Below, one piece after another: positions 1 through 63,900 of a DNA stretch of 64,000 bases. The translations under genes and the position numbers were made by a program. Where the stretch lies: the IMG/VR virus record IMGVR_UViG_3300010885_026047, positions 1-64,000 of that record; one strand, 5' to 3'. The notes under the pieces are model-generated. The model did no database searches. It saw only the letters and a program-made list of their open reading frames with translations, and was not told where the DNA came from. Source of the stretch: a virus. How positions within the stretch are numbered: the first letter of the stretch is position 1; each line of letters opens with the position of its first letter.

Positions 1-1
1 A

Positions 2-64
2 AACTCCTACTATAAAGGCCTGAGTACATATACAACTCGTAACGGAACTAAACTACAACAGTAA
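2..64 (+). CDS. 3' end of upstream ORF (partial, probably a virion protein)
   Basis: Open frame 2-64 ends in TAA directly before the ATG at 65. Confidence 0.6.
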   Translation, partial: NSYYKGLSTYTTRNGTKLQQ

Positions 65-3000
65 ATGGCTGACTTTACACTACACGATCTTGACCTACCT
101 ATAGTTTCACAGACAGCACAAAATGGTTATGCTCCTGATGCAAGTAACGTATCTGCGCCTGTAGACAGATATAGCCCACCTGCTTATACTGAACCTGGAG
201 AAGCTAAAGACGATGATCTCTTTGCTGATATAAGAAAAGCTGGAAACACTCAAAACAAGTACCAGCAGCAGTTTTTTGACTATGATGCTACAAAGGCACA
301 ACAGTTTATAAACACACCACAGTACAAAGAGTTAGGCTTTGATCCAAACCTTGGATACCAGGTAGAAGATCAACGTTATCACGAACTGGAAAGTAACTGG
401 GAAACTACCAAGAGAGTAGGTGAAGGTTTTGCAGTTGGTCTTGGTGAAGGTTTTGCAGGTATGGTTACTAACCTTAAAAATGTAGGAGAGTGGTTTAAAG
501 ACCCTTCTCTACAGGGTTCGTTTAAACAAAAACAACTAGAAGAGATAAACAAACAACAACAAGACTTTCAAAACAGGTTCTATATACCACAAGGTTACAA
601 CCCTACTGTTTTAAACTCAGTAGCAAGAGGGGTACAAGGTTCCGGTAACTTTATAGGAGCTTTAGCTGAAGTTGCAGCTTTCTCCTATCTGACTGGAGGT
701 TTAGCTGGTGCTGTAGGTGGAGTTGCTGGTCTTGGAGAAGCAGTAGGTGCTGCTGGAGATCTTAGTGAACTGAGTGCTGGTTTAAGTGCTCCTGAGATAA
801 TGGCTAACACTGAGAACTTAACAAGTGCTATAAACAACGCAGCTAACCCTACTATGTGGGAACAGGTTGGACAGTTTGCAACTAAAGCAGGTCAGAAACT
901 TCCTTTACCTGGAGCACAAACTGCAGGGTATATAGTAGGTGATGTTTTACAAGGATCTGAAGGTGGGGCGATAGCAACTGTATCCAGAGGTTTTGCAGCT
1001 TTTGCAAACGATATAAACTCTGTAAACACTGCTACAGGTTTTGCAAGTAGTAACGCTGCAAACACCTATCAGCAGTTAGTGAACGATCAGGTAGAAAAGT
1101 ACAAAAAGTATCATAATGGTATAGAACCAGATACAGACACACTTAAAAGTTTTCAGGACAAAGCTTTAAAGTCTGCTAAAGTAGGTGGTGCTATAGATGC
1201 TTACTTTATGTTAGGTCTGGAAAAACTGGCTTTGGGGAACCTTTTAAACTCCCGGTCAACTCTTCAGGAAGCTATAGAGAAAAGTGGTAAAGGTTTCTAT
1301 GACAAGATAGGTATAAAACCAAGTTGGGCTGAAGGTGCTGCTGAAGAGCCTTTGTATATCAGACAACAAGCTAAGTGGTACGACTTTAAAGCAAACTTAA
1401 CTAACAACTACTACGAAGGTCTACGACATATAGGAGCTACAGGTGTGGAGTTTGGAGTAGTGAACAACCTGATGGAAGGTGTTGACAAGGGTATCAGAAG
1501 TTATTTTGATGCTAAGTATGATAACAAAGATATAGATTTTACTGATGCTCTCTTAGACGGTATAGGTCAACAGTTCAGTAAAGAAGGTGCTGGTACTTTT
1601 ATCTCTGGGTTCTTACAAGGAGCTTTGTTACTTGGTATAGGTGGTGCAGCTTTGGGTAAAGTTAAAAACTGGGGTTTAGATAAGGCTGCTGGTAGAACAG
1701 AAGCAGATATAAAGACAAGTGATATAGATGCACAGAACTATGTACAACAGGTAAACGATGCCTGGAAAGATCCACTGAACCCTATCAAAGGTACTATCCA
1801 TGACATGATCCTGCAGAGTGCTTTAGGAGAAGGTTCTAAAACTGCTCTGGGACAAGATGATCGTAAGACCTTCCACGACTTTGCTGATGACAACCAGAGA
1901 AGTTTCCTGATGAAGCTTATCAAAAACGGTATGGCTGATGCATGGGTAGACAGAGCTGTAGAGAAAGCAAGAAGTTTAAGTCAGGATGAACTCTGTCAGT
2001 TTATGACTGTACCAAGTACTCCAGAGAACTTTGAGGCTATAAAAGCACAGATAAACGAACTACCTGCAAGAGTTAAGGACCTGAGAAACATCCGTAAGTA
2101 TATAGACACAAAACTACAGAACCCTTTCAACCCTTGGGCTAAAGACCCTGAAACCGGTAAGAGAAAGTTTGCTGATGGTTCTGTAGAGTTTACAACAGAG
2201 TACAACAACAGGGCTATATACGAGATAGCTAAAGACTATGTAGCTACTATGAAGGATGTAGCTCAAATGGCTATAGTACGTCAGGGAGCTTTGTTAAACG
2301 GTAAAACTGGTACAACAGGTATACTTGATATGCCTTTTGCTAAGAACTTAGGTTTTGCTGATGTGTTTACACTTACTTCTACAGAGTTACTGGATAAGCA
2401 GATAGCTGGTTATCAGGAGTCTGTAGCTATAAGTAAAGATAAAGAGACACAAGAAAGGTTAGAAAAGACTATAGCTTACAAAGAGAAACTTACAGAGTAC
2501 CTGAAAGGTTATGCGGATATACTTAACGAAGGTAGTTCTAAAGACAGGGCACAAAGGATAAAAGCACTGGACGATAAACATAAGGGAGAGTTAGCAGAAG
2601 CCATGTACTACTACCTGGAAACTATGCTGATAAACAGGAACCTGAAAGGAAAGGTTACTGACAGAGTTACACCTCCGGGTATGCAGGAAGTTATAGATGG
2701 TATGGATAAGATGTTAGACTACTACAAGTTAGGAGTAGATCATCATGCTATGTTGCACCAGGTAAACATACTTCTTGATCCTCATATCGTTAGAAAGTTT
2801 GAGAAGTCTTTTATGACTGAAGGTGCTAAGAGACAAGCAGAAGCTAAAGCAGAACAGGAAGCACATACTAAAGATGTAAAACCTGAAGAACCTATAGTTA
2901 CTCCTGAACCAGAAACCAAACCAGGACCAGAGTCAACAAAAGAACCGGAAGTCCCACCAACACCTGAACCACAACCAACTCCTACCCCTAAACCAGAGCC

Positions 3001-6000
3001 TGTTATACCAGAAGTACCACAACCTGTAACTACTTCTCCAGCTATAGAACGGTACAAACAACAAGAGAGAGACTTAAAGACTCTTATAGACAACTTGGAA
3101 GATGGTGTACCTGTTCCAAACGTTGATGCTTTTGATGCTATGATAAAGTCAGGAGATGCTCAAAGGTTGATGGCTGCAGATAAGTTAGCTATACAGCACA
3201 AAGTACCTCTTCAGGAACGTAAAAAGGAGTTACTGGATATAGTACAGGAGTTCTATGACCGAAAGTTACCCGAAGACAAACACGAAGTAAAGAACATAGA
3301 AGGTGATCCAAAGATAGTTGCAGACGGTAACAAGTTTGCTATCTGGAAAAACGGTGACTTTGTAGACAGTACAAGATACGGTTCTGTACGGGAAGCTAAC
3401 AGAGAGTTTGATAAGTACATAGCTGCAAACCATCCACTTATACCAGGTACAGATATCCGTGTTGGTGAGAAAGTCTACAACGAAAACAGTAACGAAGTAA
3501 AACTGGTACAGAGAGACGATAAACTTTATGTACGTCCATGGAACGAAAAGACCAAAAACAAAGACATAGAGATAATTCCTGAAGAGCTATCAGAGTACAG
3601 TAAGGACAAACCAGCAGCCCAAGATAAACCAGTAGAGAGTAGGTTTGATGGTACACAACCAAAGGTGCAGTTCAAACAGTCTACAGCTACAAGTATAGAG
3701 TCGTTCAAACAACCCGGAGAGTTCTCTGCAGAAGGTAGGGTTATAGCCGATCAAAGGTTTGCAGACACAGTTAAAACTATACCACAACAACACCTATCTA
3801 CAGGTGAAGGTTTCTCTATACAAGTTGTACCTAACGATAAGTTTACCGAGAGTTATAGAAGTGCTTTATCCCCACAACTGGTGCAGAAAGCAGACAAGGG
3901 TTTCTGGATACTTCATTACAACGGACAACCTGTAGGAGTTATAGAGAACTCTGGTAAGAACTTGTACAAGACAAAAGATGGTAAAGAGCTAACTATAGAT
4001 CAGCTAACATTACAAGATATAGCTGCTATATATGATATACCAACTACAGGTGACTACACTACATCTCAAAAGGTTTACGACAAACTGCTGGAGAACCACT
4101 TGAACTCTTTAGCTCTTAGTGATCTGCTGAAAGGTAAAGACAGTGTAGAGCTTGACGGAAAGATATCTGTAGACACTAACTATAGCTATAACTGGATAGA
4201 CACTGGAGAAGTAGGGCCTAAGTTAGCCGAACTGGAAGGACTGCAAAGAAACGAGAGAGGTGAAGTGAAGATGTATGTCTGGAACAACTACAAGTCTCCT
4301 GAAGAAGCTGGTTGGGAGATACAGAACACCATGTCTCCTGAAGAAGCACAACAAGCCCTGAAAGTAAAACCTGCCGGTAACCCTAACTACTACTCTGCAG
4401 TTGTAAAACTGGAAAGTGGTGACTATATACCTGTACAACTTACACCGAGACAGATCAGTACTGAAGAACTATCTAACATCTGTACAGCTATATCAGGTAT
4501 AGACACTGACGAGAAACTCAAAGCAGCTAACGGACAACTGAACAAAGTCTTTGTAGCTCTACCAAAAACAGATGAGTTAAGTGGTCTCAAGATATACATA
4601 AACAGTGTAGGAGTTGGTGATGATAACCACTTGTTTGTAACTGTACACAGAAAACTTCCAGGTAAAGACGTACCAACAGAAGAACTTGGTACTGGAAACA
4701 TCTACGGAGCTAAAGGTGAACTACTAAAACTATCCCCTGACGAACTTATAGACAGACTGAACAAAGTACTGCAAAGTGACAAGATAAAAGCAGATATACC
4801 CACACTTACTGTAGATAACTTAAAGTTCCAACCTGACGAAAAGAACATCGCAGAGATGGAAGCAAGTGTCAGAAAGAACCCTATAAAGAGTGTACAAGCC
4901 AGTTATAAGGTTATAGACACAAAAGGAGAACAAAGAGTCTACGAGAACAAACCCCCTGTTCCAAGTGCTCCTGTAGGACCTAAAACACCTGTTACAGATA
5001 TAGAAGCTAAGAGAGGTGATATAGAGAGGAGAAGGCAAGAAGAACTCATCTCTGCTTTTGGCAGTTCGTTTAGTAGAAACGAAGAAGTGATAAGGTCAGG
5101 AAAAAAGGCTGTCATAAGTAGAAATCCTGAGTTAGTTGCACTTTCATCAGACCCTCTTGTAAGTGACAGGAGAGCCCAAGATGTTATAGATGTATATAAC
5201 ACTATAAACCAAAAGTACGACACAGAACTAAAAGCACTTGAACAACAACCAGAGATAAAACCTATCAGTTCACTTGAACAGTTAGCTGATGAGTTAGATC
5301 AGGAAGAGAAAGCTATAAACAGTAAGTACGGAGTTCCAAAGACTCTTGACAAGGGTTTTGCTGTAGAACATGTAGCAGATATAGATAAGTTTAACGAGTT
5401 TGTAAACGAGAACTTACCAGAGTTTCTTCAGGTCGGTGAGTTGTCCGGAGTTGTAGATAACTTGCTTAACAACCGTGTAACAGTTGGTCAGTTTGTAACT
5501 TATCTGGACGAACTTGGGAACGTACAAGGTCGGATAGAAACTGGTAAAGACTTGCCATATAAGTACCATGAGGCTTTTCACGGTATCTTCAGACTACTTC
5601 TTACACCAGAACAACAGAAGCGTCTATATCAGGAAGCCAACAAACAAAACCTTGTAAGTGCCAAACAGTTAGCTGAGTTCCAGAAGTCCCATCCACGGTA
5701 TGCTGATATGGGCAAAGAACAGCTCAAAGAGGAGTATCAGGAAGAGTGGATGGCTGACCAGTTCGATAACCTGTCAAACAAGAGAGAAACACAAGCTAAA
5801 GGTGGTGTAAAAGGTCTTCTGAACCGTATCTGGGACTGGATAAAGTACATGTGGGACAAGCTGACTGGTAATAGGTTAAGGGCTTTGTTCCATGAAGTAC
5901 ATACCGGAGACTACAAGAGTGCTAAACTTCAGGAGAACAGTTTTACAGATAAAGAGTCTGTAGGTGTATCTCTACCAGTACCAAAAGCTATAAAAGTCGG

Positions 6001-9000
6001 TACAGGTGAGACAGAGATAGAACTTAGTAACGGTGATAAAAAAGCAGTTAAGATAGACAGATATCTGCCAAACGATATAGCTACACAGCTATCTAACGAT
6101 ATAACAGCTAACGTTTTACTGGAGATGCAGTCACAGACTTATCCAAGTTTTGACAAAGCTATCAAAGCAGTTATACAGAGATACAGTGATACGTACAGTT
6201 TAAAACACCCTGCAAACATACAGACTTTTGAAGGTATAACTAACCAGGGAGAAAAACGTGAGTGGGCTAAACAACTAAAAGACTACAGTACTGCAGTAAA
6301 CAGTAAAGAGCTTAGAGAGAACGTAGAACAAGGTCTTCGTATACAAGGTATCAAACAGCAGTTACTTGACGAAGATGACACTGACGAAACTACTGGAGAA
6401 CAGTTTGGTAAAGCTAAGAGTTCTATAGGTGGATATGGAGCACAAGACAAAGAACTACGTACCTATATAGCAAGTACTACACGAAAGTTAACTGAACCAG
6501 ATAGTTTTGGACTTACACAACATGCTGATGGTTCACCTATAACCCAGTCAGTTAACAGTGACTATGTGTACAACGGTCTCTTAAAACTACTCTCACAGGA
6601 GTCTGATGTCAGCAAGAACGTACAGAAACTACTTGACTACAGAGATCAGGGAAATAACCCTGACACAGTAGCTGTTATAACCAGGTGGTTGAGAGAAACA
6701 GGTTTTAACGAAGGTCTGTTTAAGTCTACAGGTCAGTTGCAAGTAACTCCTGGTGGAGAGAACCTGTTCAACAAACTTGTCAAGAACTTGTCTGAAGTAA
6801 ACAACCAGTATACCACTGTTATCATGGACCCTATAGATAACAAAGTGAGTGTTGTTGACGCAGGTAGAAGAGGTCCGGAGAGTTACCAGTTTAACCAGGC
6901 AGCTAACGGCTTCTACCAGAACTTGTACAAACAGATAGAAACTTCTACCAACAAAGGAGATAACAAGAAAGCTATAAGTGAGGCTATAAGTCCGTTTAAA
7001 GAACTGATAAAGACTACTAAGAGTATATCAGCTAAACATACACTGATAGAAGATCAACCACTTGCAGAACTGTCTTTAAGACTGTCTAACGAACTATCTG
7101 ATAAGCCGGGTATCTACATACATCCAAACTACATCCAGTTCTCCATAGTATCAGCTAAAGAGCCAAAAGCACGAACAGAGAACCAGTCAGGACAACTTTT
7201 GGTCTACCCACAGGTTAAACCTATGGACATGACAGGTCTTGAACGTGATCTGTTACCAGTTATAGAAGCAGGTAAGAACCCTTTTATACGTCCTGAAGGT
7301 TTAGATAAACCAACTGCTGCTGAAGTGTGGTTACTGAACACGTTTAAGGGAAACGCTCCTTTTGACAGTACTGTAGATAGTATGTCTCACACTAACAGTA
7401 ACGGAGACAGTGTCTACAACTATCAGTATGGTTCGTATAACTCTACAGAGATACAGAAGTTAAACGACAGTGCTTATCTGAAACAGCTCAGAAACAACCC
7501 AGATAGAAATACCTGGTTACTAGATAACCCGGAGTTCACTTCTATGACCAAGCAGTTTGTCTCTATCGGAGGTCTTGACCTGAAAGAGATGTTTGTGGAC
7601 AAGAAAGAGGGAGAAGAACCAGAACTAAACGTACAAGGTAAAGACATAAACAAAACAGGTACAGACTTTGGTGACTTTGGACCAAGAGAAGATAACGCTT
7701 ACAAACTTAGTCTCTATGACGTTTCCAACAACTCTGCAGCTTATAACCAAGATAAGAACGGAGTTGTGTGGTACTCTATACCTGTCTCTCTGGGACCTTT
7801 AGCTGAAAAGGGTACACATCACATGGTCTATCTACCAGTTACAAGGTGTATAGAAAACGGTAAACTTACAGATAAAGTTAAAGATGTCTTGTACCAGGAA
7901 CTACAGACAGAGTGTGACCGGATACAGAGAGTTAAAGCAGAGATAGATAAGGGTAGAAAGCAGGTTATAGACGAAGGTGGAAAATGGATAACTGACTACC
8001 ATGACGGTAAAGAGAAAGGTTTAAAACTGTTGTCTCTTAACGGACTTATGTCTGAAGAACTAAGAACTAAGATAGAAGCAGAACCTGACAAACTGGAAGA
8101 ACACAAAACAGAGTTTCTAAACGGTGCTCAGAAAGAACTGTTTAAACAAGTTGAAGAGTACAAACAACAACTTACAGATCAGGAACTTATAGGTAAAGAC
8201 GGTAAGAACAAACTCTTACCAAAGTACTTGTTTAAAGGCCTTGACGAGAAAAAGAACAGTGCTCTGAACTTGAAAGCAGGACAGTTTGACCATAACTTGT
8301 CTCAGGTCTATATCAACAACTACATCAGCTACTTGGGTATATCCAGGCTCTTGTACGGAGATAAAGCAAAGGTTTCTAAAGATGTACAGGACTGGTGGAA
8401 ACGTATGGCTGGTAACAACGGGCAAGGTATGTCTATGAACCCTATAGTTAGTACTGTAGATAAACCTGCAGTCTCCAGTTATCAACTGATCACTTACCCG
8501 GTTACAGAGTTTACAACTATACATGGGACTAAAGGAGAGAGTGATGACGGTCAGGCCAATGTGACTCCTTATGGATACAAGACTTTGTTAGAAGGAACTG
8601 GTAGGTTAAGTGAACTTCACAACGATCTGATAGAGACAGTTATACGTGGAAAAGATCTTACACTAAAACAGTTCAAAGCAATGCATGAAAACGATGCAGT
8701 GATGAACTCTATCAAAGATATCTACAAAGACACAGATATATACCTGAAGAACTCTGTAGGTATGTTGAACAGACAGGATACTAGCTATAAGGTAAACGGA
8801 GAGTGGGTAGCTTTACCGGGTAGAGAGGTTCTACACGAAAGACTTAACAGTGCTGAAGAACAAGAGAAAGAGAAACAACAACCTGTCTTTATCGGTAACA
8901 CGTCTATCTCTAAAGCTGCTAAAGTCAACGTACCAACAACAGAAGAGATAGAACAAGGTGATGTAGCTAAGACTTATACCCAGATACAGGGAGAGTTTAT

Positions 9001-12000
9001 GAGGTGGCAGACACAGACCCCTATGACTGGTTCTACAGGTAACAAGTCTACACAGCCAGATAAACAGATACTCTCTAACCAGGACGCAAACAAGTCTGTG
9101 TACTTTGATGGTAAACATGTTAAAGCCGGAGAAGTTATCAAGACCTACATGGATAGTAACAGACAGAGGGTTCTTAACAACCTCTTAACTGCTATTTCTG
9201 AAGTCTTTGAACCTATAACTGATCTGAAAGACTTAGACAAGATAGAGTTTGACCAGGCTAAGTTCCAGGACAAAGTTTTACCGACTCTGATGGCTACCGG
9301 AGTAGATGCTCAAACACTTGAACTCTTTCAGGAACACTACGATATAAACCTTCCACCACTAGTAGAAAAGGCTACAAGTATGTGGTTATCAGGTATGATC
9401 AAAGGTGTAAGTAAAGAGAAAGTACCGATGTGGAAGATGACACTTCGTTCTGATGCAGGTATGTCTGTGATGAGAAGGGTTAAAACCTTGACTGAAGATG
9501 GTCAACCAAAGACTTGGGATATAGTTCCTATGGACGAGTTCAAGAAAAACCCAACTTCTTACAAGAAACTATCTGGTGACGACAAGTTCTACGGTTTAGC
9601 TGAAAGTGATCTGGTAGCAGACAGGTTAAGAGATAACGTTCCACAGTACGATGACAACGGTAAAGTCTTGTACTGGTATAGTGAAGCTATGAGACCGTTT
9701 ATGACTGTAGACGAGAAAAAGAACGGTAAGTTCTCAGATGCTCTTGGTTATGGTTTTGGGGCACGTACACCGGGTACAGGTTTTCAGAGCTATAAGAGAG
9801 TACACTGGGTAGACAGGTTATCTGATGTTCTGGGTAACACTATGGTACAGTCAAGGGATGTTATGACTGCTACAGGTGAGGACTTGGATATCGACTCCAA
9901 GTTTGTAGCTATACCTGAGACATACTTTGTGGATAACAGTGACCCTAAAGAACTACAGGAGTTTAAAACTATCGGTGATAAACGACAAGAGATTAAAGCT
10001 GCTATACGAAAGATATCTTCAGACTTTGAGAGAACTGAACACTATGATCCTGCTATCAGCAGACAGGTAAAAGAGCTACGTAAACAGATAGCGCACTTAA
10101 CAGAGAGATATGATGCCGGAGCTATAGAAAAGAGTCAGTACGAACACGATAAACACGATCTTGAGATAGATATCGCTTCCTTGGGTACACCTGAAGGTAA
10201 AGCGGCAAGACATGCTGTTATAAGACAACAGAACGAACTCAAACAGGAACTTAAAGAACTCGATAAGAGATACGATGAACTGAAGGACTCTTTAGATAGA
10301 AGTAAAAAAAGAGTACAGTATGGTGCAGCTATAAGTGATAAAGATAAGTTTGAAGAGTATCTTTTATATAAGTCTCAGAGCAACTCAGTTAAAGATAAAG
10401 TGAAAGAGTTAGAAGGGACTGAAGAAGGGTATATATCGCTTATACTTTCATCTGAACGAAGTATCCTTATATCTGCTCTAAAAGAACTCAAGTTACCTTC
10501 TACACTTGAAGAGTTTACAAAAGCAGGAGGTGATAAACTTAACAACGGAGTGCTTACAAACAGATCACTTCATGCCCAGTTAGCACTTCTGTCTGGAGAG
10601 CATGTGTCCGGTGGTGGGAAAGACGCACTGATAAACAGAGCTACAAGTACACAACCTGTAGAAGATATCATCAAAGACCTTACAGACAAGTTACTGGAAG
10701 GAGAAACAAGTAAGTGGGGCAGAGATATCGCTGACCAGTTACAAGGCAAGACCGGAGACTTGAACAGTATGTTGGGGCAGAACAAAGCTTACGAAACACT
10801 GAAACAAGGTGGTGAAGGTATAGGTGGAGTAGCTAACATGATACAAGCTACTGCAGTTCTAAACCAGTTCAACAAGAAACTGTCTGTACCGTTTACCTTC
10901 GGTGGTGTGCAGTATGATGAGTACAAAGGAGCTAAAGGTGAGCCGGAAGTTACCAGAGATAGGAACGCAGATATCATGGCACAGATACATGTAGATGCAC
11001 CAAAGAACTCTATACCTTCAAAGCTCAAACTTACCAGGGAGTACGCTATGGTACTTACACATATGTTGAAACTTGGTTTACCTCTTGACAGTGCTCTCTT
11101 GTATCCACTAACTGAAGTGTGGGACAGATATGCTAAAAAGGTTGCTTATGGACAGAAACCGTTCAAACTTGGTTATGGTGTAAACGCAGATAAGGAACTA
11201 AGTAAGATGCTCAGTAGTTTGTCTGACGAAGGAGCTAAGAGGGTAGAGCTTAACAACGAGAAGTTAACAGAGTATATCAAAAGTGGTAAGTCTGACAGAG
11301 ATATAGACTACACTCTTTTGGATGACCTGAGAACCATGAAACAGATCACAGAACCTCTTAGGTATATGAGCAGGTTTATGAGGATGGATACTGGTAGGTT
11401 ACTCTCTGACTGGACTGCTATAGATCACGTACAAGAAGGTCTGAAAGAACTTGGTATAGGACTTACTGACGAAGAGTTTCACAAGACACAGAAACCTTTG
11501 GATGTCAGAGATGTGATAGAAAAGAGACATGGCAACATGAGTGCTAACTACGAAGTCTTTAAAGTTATACAGGAACTTGGTAAGAAAGTGTTTATAGAGC
11601 GTTCTCCAGTCTTCAGAGATATACAGAAAGCTACTTTGGCTGAAGTTAAGTTACCGGAGAGTGATAAGATAGCAAGATCTCAACTGAACCATGATATCCG
11701 GTCTTATATATCCCTTACAGCTTACAAGACGTGGTTAGACCAGAAAGGCAGAACAGAGGTTACAGATACTATGAACCAGAACCTACTGTGGGATAACTCT
11801 GACAGTAGTAAGTCTATCATCAAGGTTTTAACTGACCTGAGAGAGCTTACTTCTACAGACAAGGTCAAGAACTACGCACTAAACAGTTTCTTAAACACTG
11901 TACTGAAAGCCAAGAGAACAGAGATAAACACAGTTATAGCTAACACCTGGACAAGGTTAAGTGACCAGCAACAAGCTAAAGTGGTTGGGTCTATAAACGA

Positions 12001-51268: not shown

Positions 51269-51283
51269 CTTTCTGTTTGGTTT

Positions 51284-54396: not shown

Positions 54397-54647
54397 ATAG
54401 CTGTTATCTGAACGTCTTCATCTTCTGGTAAAACTCCTATAACTTCTAACAGGTTGTGGTCTACTTCTGTATCTATCGGATAGTGGATAAACTCATCGAA
54501 GAACTCCTCTTGTGTATACCCTAACTGTTCCATAGTTACCATATCTCCATCTTCTGTGTCAGTTCTTACTTTCAACTCTTTGTTGATCTCTGCAGAGACA
54601 CGAAACTTGTAGTTACTTGCATCTCTATACTGTAGTTCATACTTCAT
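54393..54647 (-). CDS. acidic hypothetical protein
   Basis: YRDASNYK...DHNLLE. Confidence 0.6.
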   Translation of the reverse strand: MKYELQYRDASNYKFRVSAEINKELKVRTDTEDGDMVTMEQLGYTQEEFFDEFIHYPIDTEVDHNLLEVIGVLPEDEDVQITAI

Positions 54648-54651
54648 ACTT

Positions 54652-55152
54652 TTAGTCGTTTTTAACCCATTTGCTTTCTCCTACTACCACTCTCTTTGGG
54701 TACTTTCTTATCCGGTTACCGTTAAAGAACAACTGCGGGTTTATCCAAAACACATCTTTGTACTCTGCTGTAGGTGTCATAAACTCATATCTGCAGAGTT
54801 CCTTCATAGCCTCTTTGTACGTGTTTATAGACTTTATAGTGTTCTTCTTCATGTACCACTCACGGTTCAGATATATCCAGTCTTTGTTGACTTCCACGTT
54901 ATAGAGTAGATATAGATAGAGAGACTTAGCTGCTGCTGATAAGTTATAGACCCTGTCTTTACACCCTGCTGACTGGTATATCCGTGTTGACTTAGCTTTT
55001 TCTACCAAACGTTCTACAGGTATATCTTCACCTGTTTTCTCATCTCTGACGAACATCTTACTCTCTACAACAGCAGTAGCTTCTATACACAGTTTACTGG
55101 CAAACGGGTTGTTTATCAGCTTGGTTTGGTCTATCTCTTGTCGTTTCTTCAT
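54652..55152 (-). CDS. RepL-like winged-helix protein, paralog 2
   Basis: LSAAAKSLYLYLL...TYKEAMKEL...FWINPQLFFNGNR. Confidence 0.7.
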   Translation of the reverse strand: MKKRQEIDQTKLINNPFASKLCIEATAVVESKMFVRDEKTGEDIPVERLVEKAKSTRIYQSAGCKDRVYNLSAAAKSLYLYLLYNVEVNKDWIYLNREWYMKKNTIKSINTYKEAMKELCRYEFMTPTAEYKDVFWINPQLFFNGNRIRKYPKRVVVGESKWVKND

Positions 55153-55153
55153 G

Positions 55154-55426
55154 TGTCAGTCTTTTGACAAAGTTACAAACTCTTTTTCAACTTGTCAAAT
55201 TTTTGACTACTTTTATCTTGTTTTTGAAACTGTCAACCAGTTGACACCGATCCTGACAACTTTGTCCTCTGAAACCCTTGTCTGTACTGTCATACAACTA
55301 CTTTTTACCATACAACACTTTTCCGCCCTTCTTGTTACTACGATAAAGTACGACCTACGTAAACACTCTTCATAGCAGCCATAGGTATAGGTTTCAGCAG
55401 TTTTTAGCACTGTCAACCTACTGACA
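55154..55426. promoter_or_regulatory. Four TGTCA-N6-TGACA operators/iterons, two overlapping a TTTG-N20-TAACTTTG promoter
   Basis: Palindromes at 55154, 55193, 55231 and 55411; consensus Bacteroidota promoter on the minus strand at about 55168-55199. Confidence 0.8.
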
Positions 55427-55549
55427 ACTATCTACAGCCAGTTAACCCACCAGATATAACTACTACCTGCAGAGAGTTGTTTCTAGCAGGGTTTCGTGTT
55501 TCTTCTACAGGTTGTTGTGTTCTGGGTATAGCTATACTTCTTCAGGTAG

Positions 55550-55876
55550 TTACTTGCTAGTATAAACCCTCTGCTGATACCAGTTGTGGAACTCTACAGG
55601 GTCTTTCATCATGTCTGACAGTGTCTGTGCTTTTGGCTCAACTCTGTCATAGGCAGGTCTTGTCTTCGGAAACTCTACATATCGACCACTTTCTTTGCCT
55701 ATAGTCAGTTCCTGTAGACCTAACAGAGTACCTACTTCTACACAAACCAGAACGTTATCTGTATCGCTGATAACTGGTATATACTGATCTGCAGGGTAAA
55801 ACCTGGGCCGGAACAAACCTATGACCCTGTCTTGCATTTGTCTGAGAGCTTCACTCAGTTGCTTTGTGTCTTGCAT
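55550..55876 (-). CDS. hypothetical protein
   Basis: 108 aa ORF. Confidence 0.55.
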   Translation of the reverse strand: MQDTKQLSEALRQMQDRVIGLFRPRFYPADQYIPVISDTDNVLVCVEVGTLLGLQELTIGKESGRYVEFPKTRPAYDRVEPKAQTLSDMMKDPVEFHNWYQQRVYTSK

Positions 55877-55957
55877 GTTTTTGTGTTTTAACTGGTTAAC
55901 TTATCTTGGATAACGCTTCACTTCTGTAGAAAGGGTGTATAGAGCAGAACATCGAAC

Positions 55958-56197
55958 TTACTCTATATGGCTTAGGAGAAAGTTTGCCAACTGTTTTGCC
56001 TGTAGACTATCTATACCTACATGTAGCTCTCTTTCCAGGTCTTCATCCCATTTACAGATGTCCAGAAACGCACCATTACCATGTTCTGTAGAGTCTATAC
56101 TGAGCCTTTCAGCAACTTTATCATCACCATACTCTGCCTGTTGACCTTCTTTGTACTCGGTCAGAAACATCTCTAACTTACTGTAGCTGAGTTTCAT
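55958..56197 (-). CDS. hypothetical protein (likely start MKLSYS)
   Basis: short acidic ORF. Confidence 0.5.
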   Translation of the reverse strand: MKLSYSKLEMFLTEYKEGQQAEYGDDKVAERLSIDSTEHGNGAFLDICKWDEDLERELHVGIDSLQAKQLANFLLSHIE

Positions 56198-56522
56198 ATA
56201 TCTAGACTTTTTAACTTTGTGTGAAACGAAAAACACCTGCACAGAACTATATCCATGCAGATGTTACTTAAACGAACAAGGTGTGTTACTACTCCTCAAC
56301 TGGAGAAGGAACGTACACGAGAAGTGCTGTAGGGTACTGATCTTCGAACTGTGACCACGTTCCAACAAACTCTCTTATCTTGGCTGACTTAGACGACAGC
56401 AGCTTAAACATAAACAAAAACATAATATCTACAGACGCGGCATTACCCTGCTGTAGACCCTGTACTTAAACACTTATAAACTACCCTGAAGAGAGAGAGT
56501 AGTAACTACAGGTAGATGATGT

Positions 56523-56685
56523 GAGTGAGAGTAGGATTCGGCACCTACAACAACTTTAGCTATGAACTTGACCCTATCAGTAGCCCAACCGTACTTCAGC
56601 CTGTTACAGCATGTACATATGCACTATCCTTCGTGCCGTTTATTCACTATAACGGAGCATCTGTTGCATCTTGCTTGACCTCACC
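56523..56685 (-). ncRNA. candidate tRNA-like structured RNA
   Basis: GGTGAGG/TCTCACT acceptor-like stem; GTAGG-TGCCGAAT-CCTAC T-arm-like hairpin; internal hairpins. Confidence 0.4.
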
Positions 56686-57160
56686 CACACCACCTATCTA
56701 TACTACTACCCTTCTATCCTCTACTACAGGTAAAACTAACTTAAAACAACTACTAGTTATAGTAAGACCCTTCCTCACCATCCCACTCTTTACAGCAGAG
56801 TATCTGATAGTTCGGGTTATTGGCATATGCTTTTGTCCTTGCTTCAGTATCTGAAGTAGCATTGATAGTAATCCACCAAGGTCTATCTGTGTGATGACAC
56901 GTAACTTGTAACTTATACAACATAACCTAGTAGCCACTGAAGTAGGCCCACACTATAAACATATGAACTTAAAAACAACTACACACACTACAAGAAACAA
57001 CAACTATACCCTTCAAACTACTACAGAGATAACCATAAGCTATACAAAACCACTGCAGAAACACCACAAAACCAACCAATATACCCTGAAGATACACCAT
57101 AACCCTACAAGAGAGCATAACCATACACCACTCTACCAAGCTAACAGTAGTACAGATAGC

Positions 57161-57368
57161 ACTATAAGTAGGTCAAAAGGACACCAGTAAGGTCAGTTTG
57201 CGACAAAAAAGAGAGAAAATACTGTTATGTGGAGTAGTATAATACCCTCAAATCCCCTCTTTCACACACAAAGTAGCAGTTATATATCTTCGGTGCCGCA
57301 ATATGACCTTGAGAGTGGGTGTTTTTTGGTGTCAACCCCGCTATAGGCGATAACATTTGACCTATAGT
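57161..57368. repeat. nested inverted repeats (multi-stem structure)
   Basis: TAGGTCAAA/TTTGACCTA, GACACCA/TGGTGTC, AAGGTCA/TGACCTT and TTGCG/CGCAA, in nested order. Confidence 0.6.
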
Positions 57369-57407
57369 AAAACCAGCTTATACGTAACTCACCACAACTT
57401 AGAGAAG

Positions 57408-57444
57408 TATAGAGAGCACCCTAACTTGTAGGATACTCTCTATA
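57408..57444 (-). terminator. long G-U hairpin (terminator or processing site)
   Basis: TATAGAGAGTATCCTA-caagt-TAGGGTGCTCTCTATA on the minus strand. Confidence 0.6.
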
Positions 57445-57474
57445 AACTCTTTATACATAACAAGGAATACTACT

Positions 57475-57624
57475 CTATGCTACTTTGAAGTGACCTTTGA
57501 ACAGTCCTGCTCCAAGTGGTATCATAGTAAAAGAAACACTCCTACGATACCTGTTACGGAGCAGTTGGTAAGCAGCTATAAGCTGTACGTAGGTCCTGGC
57601 TGAGAACGATATAATCTTTTTCAT
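57475..57624 (-). CDS. small 49 aa protein (MKKIISFSART...)
   Basis: ORF with A-rich leader between two related hairpins; not in the ORF track. Confidence 0.45.
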   Translation of the reverse strand: MKKIISFSARTYVQLIAAYQLLRNRYRRSVSFTMIPLGAGLFKGHFKVA

Positions 57625-57683
57625 CTTTGGTTGTTTTAGATATGAACTGATGTTTTGTTTGTTAACCTTTAACGATAAGAGTG

Positions 57684-57716
57684 TAGAGAGTTACCCTTAA
57701 CGGATAACCCTCTATC
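57684..57716 (-). terminator. G-U hairpin related to 57408-57444
   Basis: TAGAGGGTTATCC-gttaa-GGGTAACTCTCTA on the minus strand. Confidence 0.55.
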
Positions 57717-57726
57717 TCTCAACTGT

Positions 57727-58398
57727 TTACGCTACAACAGGTGCTGCTGAAGTAACGGCTGGTGTAAACGCCTTGTTACGTGCAAACCATGCATCAGACA
57801 GCTGCTGTTTGTTGTCATGTGCTACATAGCTGTCCATAGCTTCGGGCTTATAAACACCGTTGTTGTTGGCAAAATGTGCCATAACCCTACGATATATCGG
57901 AGTTGCTACTGCCTCACCCTGGGCATTTGGTTCATACTTCAGCAACTGGATACCGTCTGGTGTCTTCTTCAGGTCACGACCTGGGTTAGTCTTGCTGAAA
58001 GGTATCGTACTTTCATGTACACATACCCGAACACGTTTAACGGGTTCACCTACCTTAGCACCTAACAGTACCAAACGGGTTTCGATATCATCCCCGTCAT
58101 CACCAAACACATTGGTATATACCGGAACAGGTTTCCCGCTGTCCGATAAATCCATAACACCAAGCCGCATAAATGCAACTTCTTTACCATTTGTACCCGG
58201 TTGGATACGTGCACCATTACCCTGTACTGGAGTCCATGCTCCTGAAGGGTCTTCCACAAACTCCGGTAACAGGATTACTGCACCGTCACCATACATAGCC
58301 GTCTTCTCTGCAAGATACCTGCGGATGGCTGAACGGTTAGCCTTTAACTGTGTGTCACTAAGTGACTGTCTTGCTGCAACATTAGCTGCTGTGCTCAT
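57727..58398 (-). CDS. hypothetical early protein
   Basis: 223 aa ORF, higher GC than its neighbours. Confidence 0.7.
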   Translation of the reverse strand: MSTAANVAARQSLSDTQLKANRSAIRRYLAEKTAMYGDGAVILLPEFVEDPSGAWTPVQGNGARIQPGTNGKEVAFMRLGVMDLSDSGKPVPVYTNVFGDDGDDIETRLVLLGAKVGEPVKRVRVCVHESTIPFSKTNPGRDLKKTPDGIQLLKYEPNAQGEAVATPIYRRVMAHFANNNGVYKPEAMDSYVAHDNKQQLSDAWFARNKAFTPAVTSAAPVVA

Positions 58399-58465
58399 AA
58401 GAATTGTTTTTAGTATAAAAGAAATGCCTACTCTGTTACAGGTTTTCGGCTTACCCTGTTTATCT

Positions 58466-58810
58466 TTAACCAGCTATATGGGCTATCCAGTTATTGATGG
58501 CTCTGGACATGCTGATGTTATCAGTAGCCTTAGCTTGGATTTCCTCTATGGACATAACTGTGACATCACCATATGTCTGGATGGAATTGTTCGGATTACT
58601 GGTATACACATCAACAATACCATTCTCACCATAGTACTCATCACACAACTGTTGTACAACAAACTCATTGTTATATGTATAATACTGGATACTACCATAA
58701 CACCTAAGGCATGTGAGGTAGATGTAACCGTCTGATGATTTCTCTAACTGGTTACGTAGATTGGCTACAAGTGCTGAAGCCTTTTTATACTGCTGGATTA
58801 ACTCTTTCAT
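58466..58810 (-). CDS. hypothetical protein
   Basis: 114 aa ORF, AAT/ATT rich. Confidence 0.65.
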   Translation of the reverse strand: MKELIQQYKKASALVANLRNQLEKSSDGYIYLTCLRCYGSIQYYTYNNEFVVQQLCDEYYGENGIVDVYTSNPNNSIQTYGDVTVMSIEEIQAKATDNISMSRAINNWIAHIAG

Positions 58811-58843
58811 TGCTGATATATATTTAGAAGATGAGGAATAGAT

Positions 58844-59047
58844 TTAATGTGCTGCAAGCATTGCTATATCAGCATGGTGATTACACATGGCATAGCTACC
58901 AATATACTGTACTGCTGGATTAGGACAATCCATTTGGCATTTGCATACAGGTATTGCCTCTGACCAGTCTAACAGGTTATCAGTAGACAGTTGTTCATTA
59001 GCCATTTGGCTCAATGTTTGCTTTTCAGATGAAGTGAAGCCTTCCAT
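58844..59047 (-). CDS. small Cys/His protein
   Basis: CKCQMDC...MCNHH. Confidence 0.55.
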   Translation of the reverse strand: MEGFTSSEKQTLSQMANEQLSTDNLLDWSEAIPVCKCQMDCPNPAVQYIGSYAMCNHHADIAMLAAH

Positions 59048-59225
59048 AAGTATTGTTTTTAAGATGTTAACAATGGTTTAACTACCGGGGTTCCCCCGCT
59101 TTTGGTAAATGAACATGAAACGAGTAGGGTACTCCTAACCACTCACGAACACAAACAAAAAATAGCCAGGAAGTTTTTGGGGAAAAAGTTTTTATATGTG
59201 AACTCTGTTTGTATCTTTGTGTTAT

Positions 59226-59615
59226 ATGACTATAGATGAGAGGTTAGCTATACAGATAGAGTTACCGTTGTTTAGTCTGAAGTATGACAAGATAGCTGAA
59301 CCTCTTATACATAGTTTAGAACTACATAGTACGTATCTGATTTATGACTTTGAAGCTTACATGGATAAGTTCCCTGATGATGAAGATGAGTCTAAGGGAT
59401 GGGTAGTACCAAAGGAGGGGGTTTATCAGAAGATACGTCTGCAGGTTAGAAAAGATCGTATCTGTTCCATGGAGAGTTCTTGGATAGAGGATAGTCAGAT
59501 GTGGACACTTGTTATAACTTACCTATCTACAGACGAACATATACGGATAAAGTTCAATACTGAGAAAGAGCTGAGAGAAGTGGAACTGAAACTATCAGAG
59601 TGGTTGTTTTCTTAG
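59226..59615 (+). CDS. hypothetical protein (likely start MTIDER)
   Basis: TATCTTTG at 59212-19 directly upstream. Confidence 0.65.
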   Translation: MTIDERLAIQIELPLFSLKYDKIAEPLIHSLELHSTYLIYDFEAYMDKFPDDEDESKGWVVPKEGVYQKIRLQVRKDRICSMESSWIEDSQMWTLVITYLSTDEHIRIKFNTEKELREVELKLSEWLFS

Positions 59616-59624
59616 CAGAGAGTA

Positions 59625-60242
59625 TCACAAAGGACTTACACATAGTTCTCTCATCAAGTCTGCTATATGTTTAGCCATACGGTGATAGTGGAACTTATCA
59701 AAACGAACTAAGTTGATATCGTTATCTACACAGAACTTAGTCTTGATCTTGTCTACTTCTTTCCTATCAGGCCTGTCGTGGTAGAAGCTGTCGTACTCAA
59801 CTATGGTGTTGTGATCTGGCAACCAGAAGTCAAAGCGACCCCAACCACCTGTAGAGAGCCGGAGACCTGGAAAGCTTATCTCTCTTTCCCACTTGATATC
59901 ATACTTCTGCAGTTCATCTATGATCATCTGTTCAGGTACAGAAGGTTTGAGTGTATCTCCAAAGTTACTATCAAACCACTGCAGATCAGGACGAGGTCTG
60001 TACTTGTTATCTGGTAGCTTTTTCCACACTGTAGTTGTGCAACCTAAGAACTCATCTATCTGTTCGTGTATAGCTTTCTTGTACTCGTAAGAGGTCTTGT
60101 CTACAGGTGGTGCAGGTTTAGACAACTTCACTACGGGTTCCTGAAAAGTAGCTTTAACCGGAGTTTTCAGAGACCTATCTACCTCATGTGGTTTAAGTAA
60201 CCATATAAGAAAACAAACTACTGCAAGAACAACTATACCCAT
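59625..60242 (-). CDS. membrane-anchored PD-(D/E)XK (Vsr/DUF559-like) nuclease, likely start MGIVVL
   Basis: N-terminal TM; E..I...L...W.RE..F...RFDFWLP....VEYD..YH...DKIK..FC....I.LVRF. Confidence 0.7.
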   Translation of the reverse strand: MGIVVLAVVCFLIWLLKPHEVDRSLKTPVKATFQEPVVKLSKPAPPVDKTSYEYKKAIHEQIDEFLGCTTTVWKKLPDNKYRPRPDLQWFDSNFGDTLKPSVPEQMIIDELQKYDIKWEREISFPGLRLSTGGWGRFDFWLPDHNTIVEYDSFYHDRPDRKEVDKIKTKFCVDNDINLVRFDKFHYHRMAKHIADLMRELCVSPL

Positions 60243-60337
60243 AGCACACAAGATACAACAACACTTCCATCTGTGCAAGTGGTAGAGCGAACTTTTTTCA
60301 CGGTATAGTTTTTGTACAACTACTCTAAACACTCTTT

Positions 60338-60526
60338 ATGTCTGTACTTACACTTATCCTCGTTATAGTTCTTGTTGGTGTCCTTCTGTGGGCAATAAAC
60401 CGCTTTATACCTATGGATGCTACTATCAAGAACATCTTGTACTTTGTAGTCGTCCTTGTTCTGATACTTTGGTTACTCCAGGCTTTTGGTGTACTGGGAA
60501 CTTTAGGTTCTGTACGGATCAGGTAA
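60338..60526 (+). CDS. small two-TM membrane protein (Thivi_2564-like, holin candidate)
   Basis: LIVGVLLWAINRFIPM...IKNIL..VVV..LILWLLQAFG. Confidence 0.75.
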   Translation: MSVLTLILVIVLVGVLLWAINRFIPMDATIKNILYFVVVLVLILWLLQAFGVLGTLGSVRIR

Positions 60527-60573
60527 CATAAACTTTTTGTTGGTAGTGTTACTTTACTTTGTATCTTTGACCC

Positions 60574-60837
60574 ATGCAGATAAATTTAACTAACATACTG
60601 CTCTTCTCTATAGCTGGAACACTGGGTTATATAGCTTACTTACGTCACCACTCAAACAAACATAAAATGGCAACTTTTACAGACATCACTACAGCACTTG
60701 GTAACCTTACAACAGCAGTTAACGGAGCTACTGCAGCTTTGACAGGCTCTATCACTCCTGCACAGGGAGATCAGATCGTAACGGCTATAACTGACGCTAC
60801 GACTACACTGAACGCAGCAGTTACTCCTGCACCTTAA
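60574..60837 (+). CDS. small membrane-anchored protein
   Basis: N-terminal TM, Ala/Thr helical tail; TATCTTTG 4 nt upstream. Confidence 0.6.
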   Translation: MQINLTNILLFSIAGTLGYIAYLRHHSNKHKMATFTDITTALGNLTTAVNGATAALTGSITPAQGDQIVTAITDATTTLNAAVTPAP

Positions 60838-60913
60838 ACGTTTTCTCATAGGCTACACACATCAACCTCAGTCTCTACTGGGGTTTTTGGTTTTTATCTC
60901 CTAACTTTGTCTG

Positions 60914-63900
60914 ATGTCTTTTCAACTGCTTGGTGTCTGGAACGCACAAACCAACTTGACCTCTACCGGTATACACCTTGCTGACGGTACTGGTACTACT
61001 GGAGACTGCTATACCTGCTGGACAAGTGGTACACAGAACCTTGGACATGGGTTCTTTAACTATCAGCAAGGGCAAGTTATCTTATATACAAACGGTCAGT
61101 GGGTATGGCCTGGTTCTAACGGAGAGATAGACTTCTCTCTTATCTTTCCAACCTTTACTTTAGCCGGAACCTGGAACCCGAACACAAACACAACATCTCT
61201 TGGAACACATCTTACTGCAGGAGTTGGTACTGCTGGTACTGTCTACACAGTTTCTACACCTGGTATCTGTGATCTTGGTTGGGGGCCTTTTAACTGGGCT
61301 ACCGGGTTTAACGTTGTGTACAGTAACGGTAAGTGGTTGTGGATAGGTAAAGATCTTGTTTGTAACTATGGTAACACATCCGGTGGAACTGGTGGTGGGA
61401 CCGGAACAGTTACTTACGTGAACATCCAAACATCTGGTTCTGGCCTATCTGTATCTGGTGGACCTGTAACATCTTCTGGAACTTTCCTACTGCAGAACAC
61501 ATTACCTGATCGTACTGTAGTACTCAACCAAGGTCCTGGTATATCTGTTACTGGTACTTACCCAAACTTTACAGTTTCTACTTCTGGTAGTACAAGCCAG
61601 ACATCTGGTACTGTAACCTCTTTCAACACATCTGGTCTATCCACACTCTTCACCACAAGTGTCAGTAACCCAACTACAACTCCATACCTTACCTTCTCAC
61701 CTATAGCTGAGAACCAGAACTTGTTCTTTGCCAGTCCTAATGGTTCTTCTGGCATACCCTTGTGGAGAGCTTTAACAGTCAACGACTTTAACAGTGGTAC
61801 AAGTGCAAACGCTACAACTTTCTGGCGTGGGGACGGAACCTGGGCAACTCCTTCCAGTACTACTTATACTGGTACATCAGGTGTAACTGTATCTGGTACA
61901 TCCATCTACCTGGCACCTATAGCAGCTAACTCTGTACTAGCTAATGTTGGTTCCGGTTCAGGTTCGCCATTTAGTGCCCTGTCTTACTCTGCTGTAAGTG
62001 CTGTAAACAGTCTTGTATATAGAGACGCTAACCAAAATGCCTTTGCCAATAACTTTACATCTAAGGGAACTAATGTTGTATCTGCAGGAAGTACTACTAT
62101 ACTTACAGCAGCATCTACCCGGTTACAAAATCTCACAGGTTCAGCTAACCAGACATTTCAACTACCAGATGCAACAACACTGTCCATAGGGGCAAGGTTC
62201 ACTTTCAACAATAACAGTACAGGTGTTCTAACAGTAACTAATAATGGAGGTATTACCATAGCGACTTGTCCTGCAGGAGGTGCTATAGAAGTTTTTGAGA
62301 TAGCAGCATCTACACCAAATGGAGCATGGGACTATCACTTCTATATACCTGCCAATGTACAATGGGGTACAACTGCTCTTATCTATTCTGGTCCTATAAC
62401 AGCTACAAAGTTTGTTACATCTGGAGGTACTTCCTCTCAGTTTGTAAAAGGGGATGGTACTCTTGACAGTACTATATATAGTACTACATCAGGTACAGTT
62501 ACTTCTGTAAGTTTACTCTTACCAAGTTCTGTGTTCTCTATATCCGGATCACCTGTTACTTCTTCAGGTACACTTACTGGAACACTTCAGACACAAACAG
62601 CAAACACTTTTTTTGCAGGACCTGTCAGTGGTTCTACAGCACAACCTACCTTTAGAGCTATAGTTGCTGGAGATCTTCCTTCCAGTACTGGAACAGTTGC
62701 CAGTTTCTCATCTGGTAATCTTGTACCTTTATTTACTACAACTATAGCAAATCCTACTACAAACCCTGCACTTACTTTCAATCTTTCTTCTGCAGGAGCT
62801 AAGACTATCTTTGGTAACCAAACATCTGCCAGTACAACACCTTCTTTCTTTATACCTATCTTAGCTGTGGGTCCTTTTGGTTCTGAAGGAGCAACAACGC
62901 AGGTACTACACGGTAATCCAAGTGGTAACCTATCTTGGTCCCAGGTCAACCTTGCTGCAGATGTTACTGGAAACTTACCTGTTACAAACCTTAACTCTGG
63001 CAGTAGTGCGGGAGCTACAACGTTCTGGAGAGGTGATGGTATATGGGCACAAACATCAGGTTCATCTATAACTCCTGGAGGATCATCTACACAGGTTCAG
63101 TATAACAATGCGGGTACTTTTGGAGGAGCTGCTCTAACTAACATTGCTACGGACGGCAATCTGTCCTTAGTTAGTACTTCCGGAGCTACAAATGCTATAT
63201 CAGGATCACTAAAAGTATATAGTAATAACCAAACAGGAATAGATGAGCTGCATGTAGTACCGTCTATAGGAATAGAAAGTATACTGCAAAACTCTTTAGG
63301 GCAAAATCAATGGGGTAGTTGGGATCTTAGTGGAGTAGTTACCACTGCTACACAAGGAGGTATATACAATCAGGCATTAGGATTTTCAGGAACACCAGTA
63401 GCTTCTACGAGAACTTATGATTCTACTAATCTTGTTCCTAATCATATGTACTTGAAATATCCTACGGGTTCAGGAAATAATTCTCAAGCAGAGTTATATT
63501 TTAGTTCTACTGCCAGGGCATCAATGATTGGTAATAATACATATGGAGGTGGTTCAAAATGGGTTGGTAAATTTAACCTTCCACAATATACTTCTGCTAA
63601 TAGAGTGTTTGTAGGATACGCATCTTCTGCTAGTGCATTAGGAACAACAGTTGACCCTTCCACATATACCAACATAATTGGTGTTGGTAAGGATGTTGCA
63701 GATACTACTTTACAGATAATGTTTAACGGTAGTGCAGGTACAGCTACAAAAGTAAATACGGGAATAACACCAACTGCTAATGATGAATATAGAGTTACAA
63801 TAATAATTTTACCTTCTGGTACAACATCCTATGTAACACTAGAAAGATTTACAAAGTCAGCTGTGACAACATTTAGTTCATCAAACTCTGCTAAGATGCC

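Follow-up and report, generated by a model that had tools for sequence, protein, structure and literature searches.

In this study, we analysed the first 64 kb (positions 1 to 64,000, hereafter the window) of the virus record IMGVR_UViG_3300010885_026047 and focused on the near-absence of the trinucleotide AAT, and of its complement ATT, from most of this DNA. The record is a single linear contig of 113,639 bp and is about 88% complete. Its genome opens with two giant open reading frames (ORFs) of 4,638 and 2,144 amino acids (aa), which are followed in the window by small early genes, a UvsX-like recombinase, several homing endonucleases, primase, helicase and DNA polymerase genes and, at the end, a tail protein gene. 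The major capsid protein gave a match to the Crassvirus capsid family, and hundreds of uncultured relatives of the DNA polymerase, the closest with 68-85% identity, are encoded on contigs of 110-150 kb. These matches, together with the giant opening ORFs, identify the virus as an uncultured freshwater crAss-like phage. A search of sequencing runs found its genome in a freshwater metagenome run.

Across the window, 1,575 AAT and 1,799 ATT would be expected from base composition, or 1,026 and 1,190 under a first-order Markov model, but AAT occurs only 257 times and ATT 312 times. They are the two most depleted of the 64 trinucleotides in the window. The deficit is about 6-fold across the window and 20-fold across about 70% of the genome; in this purged 70% of the bases the observed/expected ratio (o/e) of AAT and ATT is 0.05, a value that describes the pattern and is not a test, since the purged blocks are defined by site density. 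About 1,000 sites are left genome-wide, where about 5,700 would be expected on the base composition of the window. All eight 4-mers containing the word are depleted (o/e 0.013 to 0.13), and many genes of 100-270 codons do not contain a single AAT or ATT. Intergenic DNA is purged as well (128 sites versus 405 expected), as in the 485-bp spacer at genome positions 79859-80343, which has 1 site versus 25. The one-base neighbours AAC, AAG, AGT and ACT are enriched.

The original prediction, which was made by reading the window without database searches, had described AAT and ATT as almost absent on both strands from positions 1-61900. The deficit in this range is stronger than claimed, with 498 sites of both words together versus 3,261 expected from base composition, and the estimate of about two dozen sites in the first 13.3 kb agrees with the 25 counted in 1-13189. 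AAA/TTT and TAA/TTA remain common, as stated (o/e 0.97 and 0.76). The purge over 1-61900 is therefore real, but it is not uniform. The range is a mosaic, in which purged blocks with ratios of 0.04-0.09, including some 2-kb bins with no site at all, alternate with islands at 0.2-0.65.

The ratios of the individual blocks compare observed with expected AAT plus ATT, and border profiles are given as counts per 150 nt. The first purged block (1..13189; 25 versus 665, 0.04) covers the first 95% of the 4,638-aa ORF (65-13981, plus strand), whose sole Pfam match is a cpYpsA SLOG domain (circularly permuted YpsA) at aa 4245-4315. The C-terminal cassette of this ORF forms a plus-strand island with sharp borders (13190..14117; 31 versus 60, 0.52; profile 0,0,2,0,3,10,6,10,0). 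The AAT-rich cassette itself measures about 450-600 nt and lies just downstream of the SLOG domain region, before the stop codon. In the purged block that follows (14118..26660; 26 versus 675, 0.04), gene ratios are 0.00-0.17; it contains the 2,144-aa ORF, small early genes, an ORF resembling uracil-DNA glycosylases (UDG-like; 22124-22777, minus strand) and the UvsX-like recombinase. The UDG-like ORF aligns weakly over its full length with family-1 uracil-DNA glycosylases (E 0.002) and lacks the GQDPYH motif with its aspartate.

A partly purged island on the minus strand (26661..27350; 13 versus 45, 0.29) holds a NUMOD4 and HNH homing endonuclease gene (26703-27278), with Pfam matches to NUMOD4 (E 2e-15) and HNH_3 (E 5e-8) and a gene ratio of 0.30. 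The next purged block, 27351..30378 (10 versus 141, 0.07), includes the C-terminal two thirds of a PD-(D/E)XK-like exonuclease gene (29807-30928). Along this gene the counts in coding order are 5,5,4,0,0,0,1,0, and its unpurged part is the N-terminal 450 nt. This part belongs to the largest island, 30379..35435 (minus strand; 169 versus 261, 0.65), together with GIY-YIG homing endonuclease 1 (30879-31916; ratio 0.82) and four small ORFs. The island has a PHROG homing endonuclease match (E 2e-32), its gene ratios are 0.54-0.82, and the neighbour-dependent codon rule described below is absent from it. Two stretches of minus-strand genes in this AAT-normal island, 32040-33100 and 34071-35082, show a peculiarity of their own: TTT and CTT are nearly missing from the coding strand (1 versus 19 and 1 versus 14), and TTG and TTA are also low. 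Unlike the AAT purge, this deficit is strand-specific; an AAA_24 gene at 44463-45299 has 0 TTT versus 8.

GIY-YIG endonuclease 2, which is fused to a UDG-like domain (35691-37265), is a half-purged minus-strand gene (35436..37404; 25 versus 121, 0.21). It is a paralogue of endonuclease 1, with 42% aa identity over 224 aa, and it has 9 sites where endonuclease 1 has 41, so that it is 80% purged. The losses are evenly spread along the gene, consistent with purging on the spot after a longer stay in the genome. At the C-terminus it matches PHROG 12143, the same family as the UDG-like ORF. Logan contigs, about 4 deep elsewhere, have a depth of only 0.3-1 over 35691-37265 and a loose end at 36682, which suggests that endonuclease 2 is present in only some genomes of the population.

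The minus-strand purged block 37405..44266 (27 versus 329, 0.08) carries an RNase H, a DUF932 protein, a DnaG-type primase (Pfam matches) and small ORFs, and five consecutive genes in it have 0 sites. It is followed by a minus-strand island, 44267..47311 (68 versus 129, 0.53), with an AAA_24 ATPase, part of a DnaB-like helicase and one further ORF. The AAA_24 ATPase is 66% identical to that of relatives whose polymerase is only 43-53% identical, an excess that would be compatible with import. Purged DNA then extends over 47312..57922 (52 versus 548, 0.09), with the DNA polymerase (48955-50985; PHROG DNA polymerase, E 2e-101) and early genes. An island of ORFs without family matches (57923..59302; 43 versus 70, 0.61) separates it from the last purged block, 59303..61798 (8 versus 121, 0.07), which includes the N-terminal third of the 1,030-aa tail protein gene (60914-64006). 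The C-terminal two thirds of this gene make up the final plus-strand island, 61799..64000 (71 versus 116, 0.61). Counts climb from 0-1 to 4-13 within the gene, and the PHROG tail protein match is on the N-terminus; the island is likely to be a swapped receptor-binding module. Outside the window, a LAGLIDADG-type endonuclease with a helix-turn-helix domain stands directly after the major capsid gene (genome 90785-91735), in a part-purged block with a ratio of 0.22.

The borders of the islands are sharp and often lie inside genes, and the islands coincide with homing endonucleases (GIY-YIG and HNH) and module ends. For these reasons the islands look like recent imports. Among the loci of relatives that were compared, none was a near-identical donor of an island. 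In the sole run with the phage, which may be the source sample, Logan contigs bridge the island borders with identical sequence at an even depth of about 4x, except at the endonuclease 2 gene. An artefact of sequencing or assembly was rejected as the origin of the deficit, since reading frames are intact, the changes are synonymous and the islands coexist with purged DNA at even depth.

The purge was separated from codon usage by a null model in which synonymous codons were shuffled within each gene (n=200), so that both the protein and the codon usage of the gene were kept. In the two codon-junction phases, AAT was observed 108 and 158 times versus 592 and 832 in shuffled genes (lowest of 200: 552 and 779), and ATT 90 and 120 times versus 472 and 683 (lowest of 200: 425 and 634). 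The ratios of observed to shuffled counts (0.18, 0.19, 0.19 and 0.18) are alike for AAT and ATT on the coding strand. Shuffled genes thus regain the sites, about 5-fold above the observed level, which bears out the original prediction that codon junctions are avoided and that simple codon bias is not the cause. The predicted preference for AAC in Asn codons and for ATA and ATC in Ile codons was also evident (AAT 293 versus AAC 1593; ATT 102, ATC 528, ATA 1597), while the pairs GAT/GAC, CAT/CAC and TAT/TAC are balanced. ATA is the main Ile codon in the genes as a whole (1,597 of 2,227, 72%), apparently forced by the ban on ATT. As the phage has no transfer RNA (tRNA) genes, it depends for this codon on the ATA-reading tRNA of its host.

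In 79 core genes, the choice of codon follows the next codon. AAA and AAG stand at 10:302 before T, and about 80% are AAA before C or G; GAA/GAG and CAA/CAG behave in the same way. GAT and GAC stand at 6:223 before T, and about 65% are GAT otherwise. At four-fold degenerate third positions, A is used in 1-2% of cases before AT. or TT. codons versus 41% elsewhere, and the A avoided before AT. codons is replaced mainly by T (74%). Island genes do not have any such neighbour-dependent rule. A bias of codon usage would be confined to in-frame codons of the coding strand. Here, the purge extends to the antisense word, to intergenic DNA and to both junction phases, and on the coding strand AAT is depleted as strongly as ATT; therefore, the target of the effect is DNA, either double-stranded or as two single strands that are affected alike, rather than RNA or translation.

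Comparison with relatives showed how the sites were lost. The closest relative compared (L067) has 85% capsid identity and is collinear with the genome over 81.7-90.5 kb. At conserved aa positions it has 228 AAT or ATT sites, of which 11 are kept in the focal genome. The losses fall on all three positions of the word (third 83, first 75, second 52) and give mainly AAC (73), AGT (52), TAT (39) and GAT (36), by transitions and transversions alike. Wherever the code allows a synonymous change, the word is broken by it. Between orthologues of the relatives and of the focal genome, the log-odds of the site shift by 2.9-5.2 in five independent site classes. Synonymous sites between the focal genome and its relatives are saturated, so that the purge cannot be dated closely.

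The relatives themselves are not purged. The AAT/ATT ratio is 0.90 in L067 and 0.75-0.77 in three relatives at 75% capsid identity, and a 1-kb fragment with an 81% identical polymerase has 34 sites versus 51 expected, where the focal polymerase gene has 8 versus 100. Taken together, the ratios are 0.67-0.90 for the relatives with 85% or 75% identity in the capsid and 81% in the polymerase, and 0.72-1.09 for 60 loci that are more distant. The purge is specific to a narrow lineage and does not reflect a composition or bias shared by the clade. Other words vary within the clade. Many relatives are strongly depleted in CpG words (CGC, ACG, CGA), to differing degrees. The unpurged relatives L070 and L037 avoid A-tracts and AATT (AAAA 0.35 and 0.53, AAAAAA 0.19 and 0.17, AATT 0.21 and 0.32, respectively), and ATAT and TATA are enriched in both. 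Word usage differs between lineages of the clade, and different AT-rich words are disfavoured.

AAT is not the only word avoided by the focal phage. CGC/GCG has an o/e of 0.15, and CGCG and GCGC occur only 3 and 10 times in the genome. Palindromes are rare among 4-mers (GGCC 54 versus 186, TCGA 79 versus 411, CTAG 118 versus 455) and among 6-mers (GGTACC 3 versus 26 under the Markov model, CAGCTG 4 versus 30; CACGTG, GCATGC and CGTACG 0). CAG/CTG is the most enriched trinucleotide (1.83), and the depletion is of CpG type, with an excess of TG/CA. A six-frame search of the roughly 88%-complete record gave no match to PF01555, PF00145, PF02086, PF02384 or PF00303, so that neither a DNA methyltransferase of four families nor a thymidylate-synthase homologue was found in six frames, and scans of about 85 proteins against Pfam and PHROG detected no DNA-modifying enzyme. 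Site avoidance seems to be the general answer of this phage to DNA-targeting defences. Since many restriction sites are also missing and no DNA methyltransferase was found, the AAT purge can be read as an extreme case of the same strategy. Several marks of recognition-site avoidance are seen here: the motif lies below both the composition and the codon-shuffle expectations on both strands, no DNA methyltransferase was found in the phage and the loss is lineage-specific.

The avoidance of CpG words also bears on the surviving sites, which the original prediction had noted to be often AATG. This is the case for 74 of the 139 isolated survivors, but the enrichment is only about 2-fold relative to the AATG share of 24-31% in unpurged relatives. 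Asn is encoded by AAT in 2-6% of cases when the next base is A, C or T, in 29% when GC follows and in 19% when GG follows. AATG as a true exception in the specificity of the agent was rejected, because the alternative AAC before GC or GG would create the avoided words ACG and CGC. The excess is thus largely a clash of AAT avoidance with CGC/CpG avoidance; a slightly lower sensitivity of AATG than of other contexts is still conceivable.

Beyond the window, genome positions 67.3-81.5 kb, upstream of the packaging genes, hold a run of glycosyltransferases (GT1, GT2, GT7, GT25 and GT11) with FkbM and Methyltransf_24 methyltransferases, a UDP-glucose dehydrogenase, an epimerase and an NAD synthase that is conserved throughout the phage clade. 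Its NadE homologues all lie inside the same clade and carry no taxon names, and so do not point to a host. One distant polymerase homologue is located in a Chitinophaga assembly. A megablast of 20 kb versus a phage collection gave no match, nor did IMG/VR single-protein scans with the polymerase and TerL as queries, and the relatives that a scan of genome contigs returned were only 28-29% identical and came from unrelated bins. The record ends with 745 bp (genome 112895-113639) in which no gene of at least 50 codons was called and the AAT content, unlike that of other spacers, is normal (40 versus 42 expected); this stretch may belong to a terminal region or be foreign sequence at the end of the contig.

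We consider it somewhat probable that the purge results from steady selection on DNA against 5'-AAT-3' on either strand, imposed by a DNA-acting factor of the host cell and countered by site avoidance. The losses at three positions of the word, by transitions and transversions, and the similar shift across five site classes argue for selection on the word rather than for a single mutational bias. The claim that selection on a 3-bp word goes far beyond ordinary restriction-site avoidance is supported to this extent, as the deficit behaves like selection. Under this explanation the selection would act on the DNA itself, each copy of AAT or ATT would carry a small cost, and, since a synonymous change can remove any copy, almost all would have been removed from genes and spacers alike. 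The AAT-normal blocks would be recent imports, by homing or by recombination from unpurged relatives, that are now being purged in place. Since an asymmetric site is lost on both strands, the agent should act at single sites. We infer that the cost would come from a host-cell factor that recognises only about three bases, in either orientation, such as a restriction-like enzyme that cuts or nicks frequently, or a toxin that modifies DNA at short motifs. The phage would counter this factor by avoiding its sites, as it visibly does with many classical restriction sites.

Several points weigh against this explanation. No AAT-specific enzyme was identified in the genome, and we know of none elsewhere. 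The roughly 1,000 remaining sites mean that the cost per site must be small, which fits a weak or rate-limited agent and fits CRISPR immunity equally well. The unpurged relatives evidently exchange DNA with the lineage and so enter the same cells without a purge. Under a simple mutation-selection-drift model the scaled cost per site is about 3-5, weak in absolute terms and uniform across site classes, although to read the log-odds as a selection coefficient presumes equilibrium and an equal mutation bias in both lineages. Finally, surveys find avoidance mainly of palindromic Type II sites and rarely of asymmetric ones (PMC6286503; bioRxiv 10.64898/2026.09.23.753747).

Among the alternatives, erasure of a CRISPR protospacer-adjacent motif (PAM) from the whole genome is unlikely. 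If AAT (ATT on the other strand) were the PAM, its loss would block both spacer acquisition and interference, and only the imported islands could be targeted. A three-base asymmetric word lost on both strands meets what is required of a PAM of type I or type V, and a small cost per site fits the number of tolerated sites and the modest strength of 3-5 log-odds. PAM depletion in phages has been reported, but the two studies consulted describe under-representation (PMC4246573; PMC12174588). The parallel loss of palindromic restriction sites points instead to a general restriction-type pressure. To our knowledge, near-total genome-wide loss of a PAM has not been described. Most CRISPR systems tolerate several PAM variants, and this does not match the purge of a single word whose one-base neighbours AAC, AAG, AGT and ACT are enriched. 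It is decidedly unlikely that a context-dependent mutational process (polymerase error bias, a deaminase or repair) destroys AAT and ATT faster than they are created, without selection on the word. The CpG-type depletion with its TG/CA excess does show context effects in this genome, and the even part-purge of endonuclease 2 could come from slow decay. However, no single change dominates among the losses at the three positions (75, 52 and 83), which comprise transitions and transversions; the 74% of T among replacements of the avoided A before AT. tracks the AT-rich composition and not one chemical change; the proteins are intact, with changes taken wherever they are synonymous; and relatives with an 81% identical polymerase lack the bias.

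The original prediction had proposed, besides a host CRISPR PAM and a host DNA-modifying or nicking defence, an AAT-specific nuclease or glycosylase encoded by the phage, and such an enzyme, or a modifier, would attack host or competitor DNA while the phage is protected by lacking the site. This appears quite improbable. UDG-like proteins, PD-(D/E)XK-like nucleases and several endonucleases are present, most early genes have no known function, and the purge is lineage-specific. On the other hand, no gene specific to the lineage was identified, and the UDG-like and PD-(D/E)XK genes (exonuclease 29807-30928) do not explain a lineage-specific purge because they have homologues in unpurged relatives. 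The UDG-like ORF, named as a candidate, lacks the catalytic aspartate motif, and the virion PD-(D/E)XK nuclease named beside it was not detected in the two giant ORFs by profile searches. An enzyme that destroys chromosomes and spares the phage fits poorly with the sites that remain in islands, some of them in replication and tail genes, as it would cut them. Since the candidate genes also occur in unpurged relatives and a strong phage enzyme would hit these remaining sites, the agent is more likely external to the phage. Avoidance of a DNA shape, namely AnTn tracts with a narrow minor groove, to which a nucleoid protein, a silencer or a small groove-binding molecule would attach, is very improbable. 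No 4-mer is more depleted than AATT (o/e 0.013), and AAAT is low too (0.08), but A-tracts sharing that shape are nearly normal (AAAA 0.83, AAAAA 0.70), for which reason this explanation was rejected, and tract-free contexts of the GAATC type are equally purged (GAAT 0.028, AATC 0.034). An effect at the level of RNA or translation, whether through codon usage, the supply of tRNA or a MazF- or ToxN-type RNase toxin that cuts at AAU, is scarcely credible despite the extreme skew of Asn and Ile codons. It is refuted by the symmetry across phases and strands, since the depletion is as strong for ATT as for AAT on the coding strand and extends over all phases and the intergenic DNA. A codon that is normally rare, ATA, moreover becomes the main Ile codon (72%) in a phage without tRNA genes.

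Returning to selection by a host-cell factor, a more specific form of this explanation can be put forward tentatively: lake bacteria, probably Bacteroidota, may carry an undescribed anti-phage activity that reads only AAT, at single sites and on either strand, to which the lineage would have responded by rewriting nearly every codon junction. If this is true, there would be a class of DNA defences of ultra-short specificity whose target words can be read from phage genomes. The removal of thousands of sites without protein change implies that something has persistently read a very short word, and the purge is not explained by any known defence. The islands, the half-purged paralogue and the unpurged sister lineages serve as internal controls, and a purged genome with its own controls is a good system for measuring selection on DNA words. 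AAT-rich and AAT-free DNA provide a concrete bait with which the factor responsible could be found. Should other phages prove to be purged of other words in this way, k-mer purges could reveal the specificities of defences and link phages to their hosts.

Literature searches gave no description of trinucleotide purges in phage genomes, and the case has partial parallels among known systems. As in restriction-site avoidance (PMC6286503), sites are lost on both strands by synonymous change, a loss that is near-complete in some genomes; the phage likewise has no DNA methyltransferase of its own that was found and is short of many 4-6-bp palindromes. Known sites of this kind, however, are 4-8 bp long and mostly palindromic Type II sites, whereas the present word is three bases long, asymmetric and AT-only, and thousands of sites are involved. 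PAM depletion in phages also concerns a 2-3-base motif under-represented through selection and not mutation, but under-representation is what the two studies consulted describe (PMC4246573; PMC12174588), in contrast to the removal of 95% of sites in most of the genome here. Phages escape Type III-like systems by losing sites on one strand only (bioRxiv 10.64898/2026.09.23.753747), and here both strands are affected. Enzymes with 3-nt sites do exist, such as the chlorovirus nicking enzymes Nt.CviPII (CCD) and Nt.CviQII (RAG) (PMC3017599), and DarT toxins act at TCT/TTT on single-stranded DNA (PMC9967889). They resemble the proposed agent in reading about three bases of DNA at single asymmetric sites. 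No homologue of a chlorovirus-type nicking enzyme or of DarT was found in the genome, and members that read AAT are not known. A chlorovirus encodes its enzyme and protects itself by methylation with a matching methyltransferase, not by avoidance; neither a DNA methyltransferase nor a lineage-specific nuclease was found in this phage. The purge described here thus differs from known avoidance in lacking a known cognate enzyme and in the length, asymmetry and AT-only content of the word as well as in the number of sites removed.

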